856 nucleotides of DNA from Escherichia coli (lineage in GTDB: Bacteria; Pseudomonadota; Gammaproteobacteria; Enterobacterales; Enterobacteriaceae). The notes beneath the pieces were generated by a model. It was not told the origin of the DNA, searched no databases, and worked only from the letters and a program-made list of their open reading frames with translations. The DNA is taken from the NCBI RefSeq assembly GCF_003334305.1, contig NZ_QOWS01000068.1. One strand, written 5' to 3'. Below are positions 1-856 of the stretch, piece by piece; position 1 is the first letter of the stretch; every line of letters begins with the position of its first letter. A program made the translations under genes and the position numbers.

Positions 1-17
1 CAATGGGCAAGGTGGGC

Positions 18-46
18 TTGCATTTGCTTAATAGAAAGGCGTTAAT
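18..46 (+). promoter_or_regulatory. Weak candidate sigma70 promoter: -35 TTGCAT (18-23), 17-bp spacer, -10 GTTAAT (41-46); exact elements uncertain
   Basis: Seen in sequence: TTGCAT matches the -35 consensus TTGACA at 4 of 6 positions, and GTTAAT matches TATAAT at 4 of 6, with optimal 17-bp spacing. An alternative -10 is TAATAG at 29-34 or 43-48. This is sequence inspection only; the transcription start is not known to me. Confidence 0.25.
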
Positions 47-50
47 AGGC

Positions 51-80
51 AAAACGAAATGAAACGAAAGTTTTACGAAA
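51..80 (+). promoter_or_regulatory. Candidate repressor operator: AAAA + three tandem YGAAA pentamers (CGAAA 55-59, TGAAA 60-64, CGAAA 65-69) plus a fourth CGAAA at 76-80; bottom strand reads TTTCGTTTCATTTCGTTTT
   Basis: The repeat is seen directly in the sequence. It lies between the candidate -10 and the RBS, where a bound repressor would block initiation. As I recall (unverified), AgaR operators are described as tandem TTTC-purine units and agaR is autoregulated. DeoR-family repressors commonly bind direct repeats. Confidence 0.45.
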
Positions 81-83
81 GGA
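78..83 (+). promoter_or_regulatory. Shine-Dalgarno / ribosome-binding site for the CDS at 90 (AAAGGA, 6-nt spacer to ATG)
   Basis: Seen in sequence: aaagga at 78-83 followed by cttact and then ATG at 90. The AGGA core and 6-nt spacing fit a canonical E. coli RBS. Confidence 0.6.
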
Positions 84-89
84 CTTACT

Positions 90-856
90 ATGAGTAATAC
101 CGACGCTTCAGGTGAGAAGCGAGTGACAGGCACCAGCGAGCGACGAGAACAGATCATTCAGCGTCTGCGACAGCAAGGGAGTGTGCAGGTTAACGATCTG
201 TCGGCATTGTATGGCGTATCTACTGTGACGATCCGCAATGATCTGGCGTTTCTGGAAAAGCAGGGGATCGCTGTGCGTGCCTATGGTGGCGCGTTGATCT
301 GCGATAGCACGACGCCGTCAGTCGAGCCATCAGTGGAAGACAAAAGCGCACTGAACACCGCGATGAAACGCAGCGTTGCGAAAGCTGCCGTTGAGTTGAT
401 TCAGCCAGGTCATCGGGTGCTCCTCGATTCCGGGACCACCACTTTTGAGATTGCTCGTCTGATGCGCAAGCACACTGACGTAATTGCGATGACCAACGGT
501 ATGAACGTGGCTAATGCGTTGCTGGAAGCGGAAGGCGTTGAGCTGCTGATGACCGGCGGGCATTTGCGCCGTCAGTCGCAATCTTTTTACGGCGATCAGG
601 CTGAGCAATCGCTGCAAAATTACCACTTCGATATGCTGTTTCTTGGTGTAGATGCGATCGATCTGGAGCGCGGCGTCAGCACACATAATGAAGATGAAGC
701 CCGTTTAAACCGTCGGATGTGCGAAGTTGTGGAACGGATCATCGTGGTCACCGATTCCAGTAAATTCAATCGTTCCAGTTTACATAAGATCATTGATACT
801 CAACGTATCGACATGATCATTGTTGATGAAGGCATTCCTGCGGATAGTCTGGAAGG
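90..856 (+). CDS. agaR: DeoR-family HTH transcriptional repressor, most likely the aga operon repressor AgaR; 3'-partial (runs off the window end, roughly 14 codons missing if the full protein is ~269 aa as I recall)
   Basis: Seen in sequence: ATG at 90 is the first start after the in-frame TGA at 60-62, and the frame stays open for 255 codons to the window edge. Translation begins [70 protein letters not shown], a DeoR-type HTH signature, followed by a DeoR C-terminal sensor-domain pattern ([11 protein letters not shown]..., ...[10 protein letters not shown]..., ...[10 protein letters not shown]...). The agaR assignment is from memory of the E. coli AgaR sequence, not a search. Codon usage is typical of E. 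coli-like Enterobacteriaceae. Confidence 0.85.

Follow-up and report, generated by a model that had tools for sequence, protein, structure and literature searches.

A tandem YGAAA pentamer array upstream of agaR in Escherichia coli as the known AgaR operator of the agaR promoter

The array of YGAAA pentamers located upstream of the agaR gene in this stretch of Escherichia coli DNA is the already known AgaR operator at the agaR promoter, a correct but ordinary assignment. There is little doubt that it acts as the promoter-proximal operator through which agaR is negatively autoregulated. The binding of AgaR to the agaR, kbaZ and agaS promoters and its autoregulation are taken from the literature (PMC3668189, PMC4694137, PMC5018945; AgaR is presented as an autoregulator in PMC4694137), and the sequence identity, recurrence, conservation and geometry of the site were computed in this work. 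The earlier note on this DNA had proposed an autoregulatory AgaR operator and considered it expected biology, and this is what the match to the reported consensus, the recurrence of the motif, its conservation and the literature agree on. The significance of the finding goes little beyond annotation, the element being a textbook operator for autoregulation in a sugar regulon that has been characterised.

The window, that is, the whole stretch of DNA analysed (856 nt), carries the leader of agaR and the greater part of its coding sequence. It corresponds to positions 13001-13856 of a 26.8-kb E. coli locus (L001), where agaR is divergent from kbaZ-agaVWEF-nagA with an intergenic region of 248 bp. 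The nagA gene of this locus is the one named agaA in the aga literature, and the agaS-kbaY-agaBCDI operon is found further upstream. Concerning its distribution, 5321 of the 5426 complete E. coli genomes match the window with identities of 95-99.5%, and the feature is annotated in RefSeq as 'aga operon transcriptional regulator AgaR'. The best identity among these 5426 genomes was 99.5%, not 100%. Some E. coli genomes showed 2-5 places matching the window, three places on plasmids among them, so some strains carry extra full or partial copies of agaR.

The protein encoded by agaR presents the Pfam domains HTH_DeoR (residues 18-74, E=3e-21) and DeoRC (residues 89-247, E=5e-55), which identify it as a DeoR-family repressor. 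In AgaR, the N-terminal part is a winged helix-turn-helix and the C-terminal part a domain that senses sugar phosphates. The sole solved relative by sequence is 7l6l, the sensor domain of a deoxyribose operon repressor, which matched AgaR 84-252 and left the DNA-binding domain outside, so the recognition of the pentamers is not inferable from structure. The earlier placement of the array upstream of the ribosome-binding site of a DeoR-family repressor gene was borne out by these domains, by the AgaR annotation and by the AAGGA found before the ATG at 90. The coordinates of all the features are collected in Table 1.

Table 1. Features of the window and operator positions in the kbaZ-agaR region, with their conservation in the aligned leaders
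Feature	Position	Strand	Remarks
Upstream flank	1-16		31-81% conserved
Conserved block CTTGCATT	17-24		96-100% conserved (A22 74%), 81 loci
-35-like hexamer TTGCAT, inferred	18..23	+	within CTTGCATT
Conserved block AAAAGAAAGG (E. coli AATAGAAAGG) in promoter spacer	30..39	.	86-100% conserved; holds GAAAG at 34-38; CTTTCTTTT on minus strand
-10 region GTTAATAG, inferred	41..48	+	85-100% conserved; TTAATA at 42-47 100% conserved
AgaR operator of agaR promoter, 24 bp	50..73	-	AAACTTTCGTTTCATTTCGTTTTG read 73->50; zero mismatches to reported consensus WRMMTTTCRTTTYRTTTYNYTTKK
AA	52-53		99% conserved
Core, three perfectly tandem pentamers CGAAA-TGAAA-CGAAA (CGAAATGAAACGAAA)	55..69	+	in 77/81 loci; exact E. 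coli sequence in 47
Conserved block CGAAATGAAACGAAAG	55-70		79-100% conserved; 14/16 columns >=96%
Downstream of array	71-77		37-78% conserved
Fourth CGAAA	76..80	+	lineage-specific; overlaps Shine-Dalgarno sequence; outside conserved operator
Shine-Dalgarno region AAAGGA	78..83	+	A79-A83 88-99% conserved; SD-like motif in 76/77 loci
agaR coding sequence	90..856	+	ATG at 90, continues past window end; encodes DeoR-family repressor
Operator S1	about -217, upstream of agaR	+	
Operator S2	about -177, upstream of agaR	-	
Operator S3	about -133, upstream of agaR	-	
Operator S4 (pentamer array at agaR)	about -36, upstream of agaR	-	

The elements described in the earlier note (the three tandem pentamers, the AAAA at 51-54 before them, a further CGAAA after a gap of 6 nt, and the GAAAG at 34-38) are all present in the sequence at exactly the positions given for them. 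The sequence YGAAAYGAAAYGAAA has a single occurrence in the window, and none of 200 dinucleotide-preserving shuffles contained the triple pentamer. Read on the minus strand from 73 to 50, the site consists of four direct TTTC-type pentamers: TTTCG, TTTCA, TTTCG and TTTTG. Ray and Larson reportedly defined in 2004 a 24-nt AgaR consensus, WRMMTTTCRTTTYRTTTYNYTTKK. Comparison with this string, a check proposed in the earlier note, gave the perfect match listed in Table 1, and a full-text literature search returned no match to the 24-nt consensus string. The operator is located 17-40 nt upstream of the agaR ATG, inside the 248-bp divergent region, and its cross-species consensus at 50-73 is CTTTCGTTTCATTTCgtTTtg.

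Regarding the architecture of the site, the conserved operator core is 50/52-70, with the TTTC pentamers on the minus strand, and the AAAA at 51-54 is a degenerate fourth pentamer of the 24-bp site, with A52 and A53 conserved at 99%. The visible repeat unit is 5 bp, and pentamers 1 and 3, likewise 2 and 4, are spaced 10 bp. The E. coli AgaR sites have been called palindromes (PMC4694137); this reading was rejected, as the repeats in the sequence are direct. The sole dyad in the site is AAAAC/GTTTT (51-55 and 70-74), and its T71-T74 arm is merely 49-78% conserved. The CGAAA at 76-80, previously counted as a fourth operator unit, has to be removed from the operator: C76 and G77 are 37% conserved, only 5 of 77 loci have YGAAA at the offset seen in E. 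coli, and just the AAA of this unit overlaps the conserved Shine-Dalgarno AAAGGA.

Conservation was analysed in 80 orthologous agaR loci from Escherichia, Salmonella, Citrobacter, Klebsiella, Enterobacter, Kluyvera, Raoultella, Yersinia, Serratia, Buttiauxella, Cedecea, Mixta and others. The neutral yardstick was a set of 51 fourfold-degenerate agaR sites in invariant amino-acid columns, where the top-base frequency averaged 0.56 and peaked at 0.94, with none reaching 0.95 or more. The alignment of orthologous leaders, also suggested beforehand as a check, recovered the three tandem pentamers in 77 of 81 loci. In all of these 77 loci the distance from the start of TTAATA to the first base of the array is 13 nt, and the distance from TTGC to the array is 37 nt in 71 of them. 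In contrast, the array and the ATG are 35 to 37 nt apart, depending on the locus. This fixed spacing to the promoter blocks, together with the variable spacing to the ATG, indicates that the array is tied to the promoter and not to the start codon. Strong purifying selection acts on the array, whose distance to the promoter blocks is fixed. The cross-species footprint represents a modest refinement of what was known, since it defines the constrained bases of agaR control, removes the fourth pentamer and flags a conserved block in the promoter spacer.

Variant arrays were found in four agaR leaders (L053, L062, L074 and L061), from Serratia and relatives. Two Serratia loci carry the variant GAAATGAAACAAAGG, and a rearranged version, GAAATGAAGAGAAATGAAAAAAAGG, is found in Serratia sp. 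DD3. At the margin of the phylogeny covered here, the operator is evolving.

The earlier note also suggested scanning the kbaZ/agaZ and agaS promoters, and the same motif recurs there. When one mismatch at most was allowed, TTTCRTTTYRTTTY gave 8 matches in the 26.8 kb of E. coli DNA versus 0.35 expected, 7 of the 8 being in the kbaZ-agaR intergenic region or upstream of agaS. The 24-mer, with up to three mismatches, gave 6 matches versus 0.15 expected in the same DNA, and all six were located in these two regions. The confinement of the motif to aga promoters is independent of the reported consensus. Furthermore, in the 80 loci the 14-mer was matched 370 times in the 32 kb made up by the 400-nt stretches upstream of agaR and 17 times in the remaining 492 kb, an enrichment of 334-fold.

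The 14-mer matches upstream of agaR fall at four fixed positions and orientations, S1-S4, and the pentamer array is S4. They are separated by 40, 44 and about 96 bp, all four are present in 65 of the 80 loci, and the core common to their consensuses is CTTTCRTTTYRTTTY. The divergent kbaZ gene was found in 76 of the 80 loci, with a spacer of 240-269 bp. The four-operator layout of the kbaZ-agaR region is nearly invariant across Enterobacterales, and it could guide work on how DeoR-family repressors read 5-bp direct repeats. S1 is located 32-55 nt before the kbaZ ATG and the agaS-proximal site 52-75 nt before the agaS ATG. In both cases GAAA is on the sense strand, mirroring S4 at agaR.

A sigma-70 consensus scan found no canonical site upstream of agaR and the array, so the promoter assignments are provisional and derive from the conserved blocks; a literature search by promoter name returned no start-site data for agaR. 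Most plausibly, the -10 hexamer is TAATAG at 43-48, with G41 at -14 and the critical A kept at -11. As an alternative, it could be GTTAAT at 41-46, with a 17-bp spacer. Transcription would start near 53-56 under either choice. Previously described as located in the leader, the array overlaps this putative start and is not simply leader DNA. A terminator-like stem, GCAAG-GTGGG-CTTGC, was also observed at 7-21, followed by ATTTGCTT, and it overlaps the -35 region. As a terminator it is probably due to chance, lying mostly in the poorly conserved columns of the upstream flank (1-16, upstream arm included).

Between the putative -35 and -10 elements lies the conserved 30-39 block. The GAAAG that it holds, mentioned in passing in the earlier note, is 95-100% conserved, level with the array core, and the GAAA of the block is exactly 21 nt before the first base of the array in 74 of 77 loci. 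Promoter spacers are normally not conserved, so the block may be an auxiliary AgaR half-site or the site of another factor. Three helical turns (32 bp) separate the CTTTC of the block (minus strand) from that at 70-66. It is conceivable, although we regard it as rather doubtful, that the agaR operator is bipartite. The block (CTTTCTTTT, minus strand) would then be an auxiliary AgaR contact and an oligomer would bracket the -10 element, possibly looped to the kbaZ-proximal operator about 180 bp away.

Concerning the mechanism, AgaR recognises a site of about 24 bp, which the minus strand (73->50) presents as four direct pentamers of the TTTC type. The operator begins 2-4 nt past the conserved -10 region and would cover the putative start and the early transcribed DNA. 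With a start near 53-56, it would extend roughly from -5 to +20, inside the RNA polymerase footprint. Once bound, AgaR would keep RNA polymerase away by steric hindrance, or prevent the open complex from forming and the polymerase from escaping, which would result in negative autoregulation. Growth on N-acetylgalactosamine or galactosamine would relieve the repression, and the autoregulation would be weak. According to the literature, agaR mRNA is raised just 2-fold by N-acetylgalactosamine, and such a small autoregulatory effect, about 2-fold, counts against the operator explanation. Four conserved operators occupy the control region between the divergent kbaZ and agaR genes, the array being one of them, and E. 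coli has more sites upstream of agaS. Given the fixed spacings, cooperative or looped binding of an AgaR oligomer with S1-S3 is plausible.

It is very improbable that the GAAA repeats act instead as RNA in the agaR 5' UTR, where they would enhance translation as unstructured A-rich sequence, be the target of a protein or sRNA, or form a small structured element, with their conservation due to such a role and not to DNA binding. A start near 53-56 would put the array in the transcript, 20-35 nt before the start codon, and sense-strand GAAA is shared by all three leader-proximal sites (agaR, kbaZ and agaS). However, no Rfam match was obtained at E<=1, and the fold of 50-110 has a z of -0.99, with 33 of 200 shuffles folding equally well or better. 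Moreover, at S2 and S3 the motif lies in the opposite orientation well upstream of genes, as would suit a site in DNA but not one in RNA. The invariant spacing of the array to the promoter block, with its variable spacing to the ATG, also argues against an RNA role.

A different transcription factor binding GAAA/TTTC on the array, with AgaR acting elsewhere in the promoter, has only a slight probability. The separate conserved block at 30-39 would agree with it, being a sign of a promoter with more than one conserved element. Nevertheless, across 80 species the aga-regulon promoters next to agaR are the only ones with which the motif co-occurs, the array matches the reported AgaR consensus exactly, and AgaR itself has been placed at the agaR promoter (PMC3668189, PMC5018945). 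Finally, chance low-complexity A-rich sequence with no function is practically negligible as an explanation: repeats of this short, A-rich kind often occur in intergenic DNA rich in AT and the fourth pentamer looks incidental, but the array appeared in none of the 200 shuffles and its conservation, 96-100% across genera versus the neutral mean of 0.56, refutes it.

Comparison with known systems leads to the same assignment, an AgaR operator at the agaR promoter. The AgaR operators of the E. coli aga/gam regulon involve the same locus, gene and motif as the array, and nothing substantive differs: sister sites are found in the kbaZ-agaR region and upstream of agaS, and AgaR binds its own promoter. 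Ray and Larson reportedly located in 2004 the aga/gam operators at the promoters PR, PZ and PS, and a comparative reconstruction of the aga regulon was reportedly carried out by Leyn and colleagues in 2012.

Among other DeoR-family members, the RhaR regulators use tandem direct repeats whose period is 10-11 bp, and RhaR from Chloroflexus binds a 38-bp region that holds four TCGAAA sites in tandem (PMC3870299). These operators resemble the array in their direct, not palindromic, symmetry and in the presence of several tandem units at the regulator's own promoter, and TCGAAA is very like CGAAA. On the other hand, their repeats are described with a period of 10-11 bp, the visible unit of the array is 5 bp with alternate pentamers 10 bp apart, and RhaR and AgaR are not orthologues.

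When put at +1 of a synthetic promoter, an AgaR site gives modest repression, never beyond about 10-fold (PMC8667592). As in the array, the repressor site overlaps or directly follows the start, and this modest repression of about 10-fold fits the weak 2-fold native autoregulation. Unlike the synthetic promoter, the native array has three more operators and a conserved spacer block around it, which leaves room for cooperative effects. In the accessible part of the supplement of PMC8667592, AgaR cloning primers are given and no AgaR binding-site sequence was found.

Some minor features were observed in the intergenic regions of the E. coli locus. Upstream of agaS there are three AgaR-type sites, at L001 7763-7786, 7604-7627 and 7526-7549, with 3, 2 and 0 mismatches to the 24-mer, respectively. 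The farthest one, just past the nagA/agaA stop codon, stands about 290 nt away from the agaS ATG, and further TTTC-rich stretches, e.g. tgtcttttctttcaatg and actttcagtttcttttc, occur between these sites. A GC-rich imperfect palindrome, gtgtcggatgcgacgctaacgcgtcttatccgacctacggtacgccgcatccggca, is found on the minus strand of the nagA/agaA-agaS intergenic region, at about 7685-7745 of L001. It is REP/BIME-like and is flanked by two clusters of TTTC-repeat sites upstream of agaS.

In the kbaZ-agaR intergenic region, outside the window, the sequence TTTTCTGATCTGATTCACAAAAG (L001 12937-12960) is CRP-site-like, its minus strand reading TGTGA-N6-TCAGA. It adjoins operator S3 or overlaps with it, and the TGTGA beside S3 is kept in the cross-species consensus. 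A CRP-like site near S3 is consistent with the dependence of the kbaZ/agaZ promoter on cAMP-CRP.
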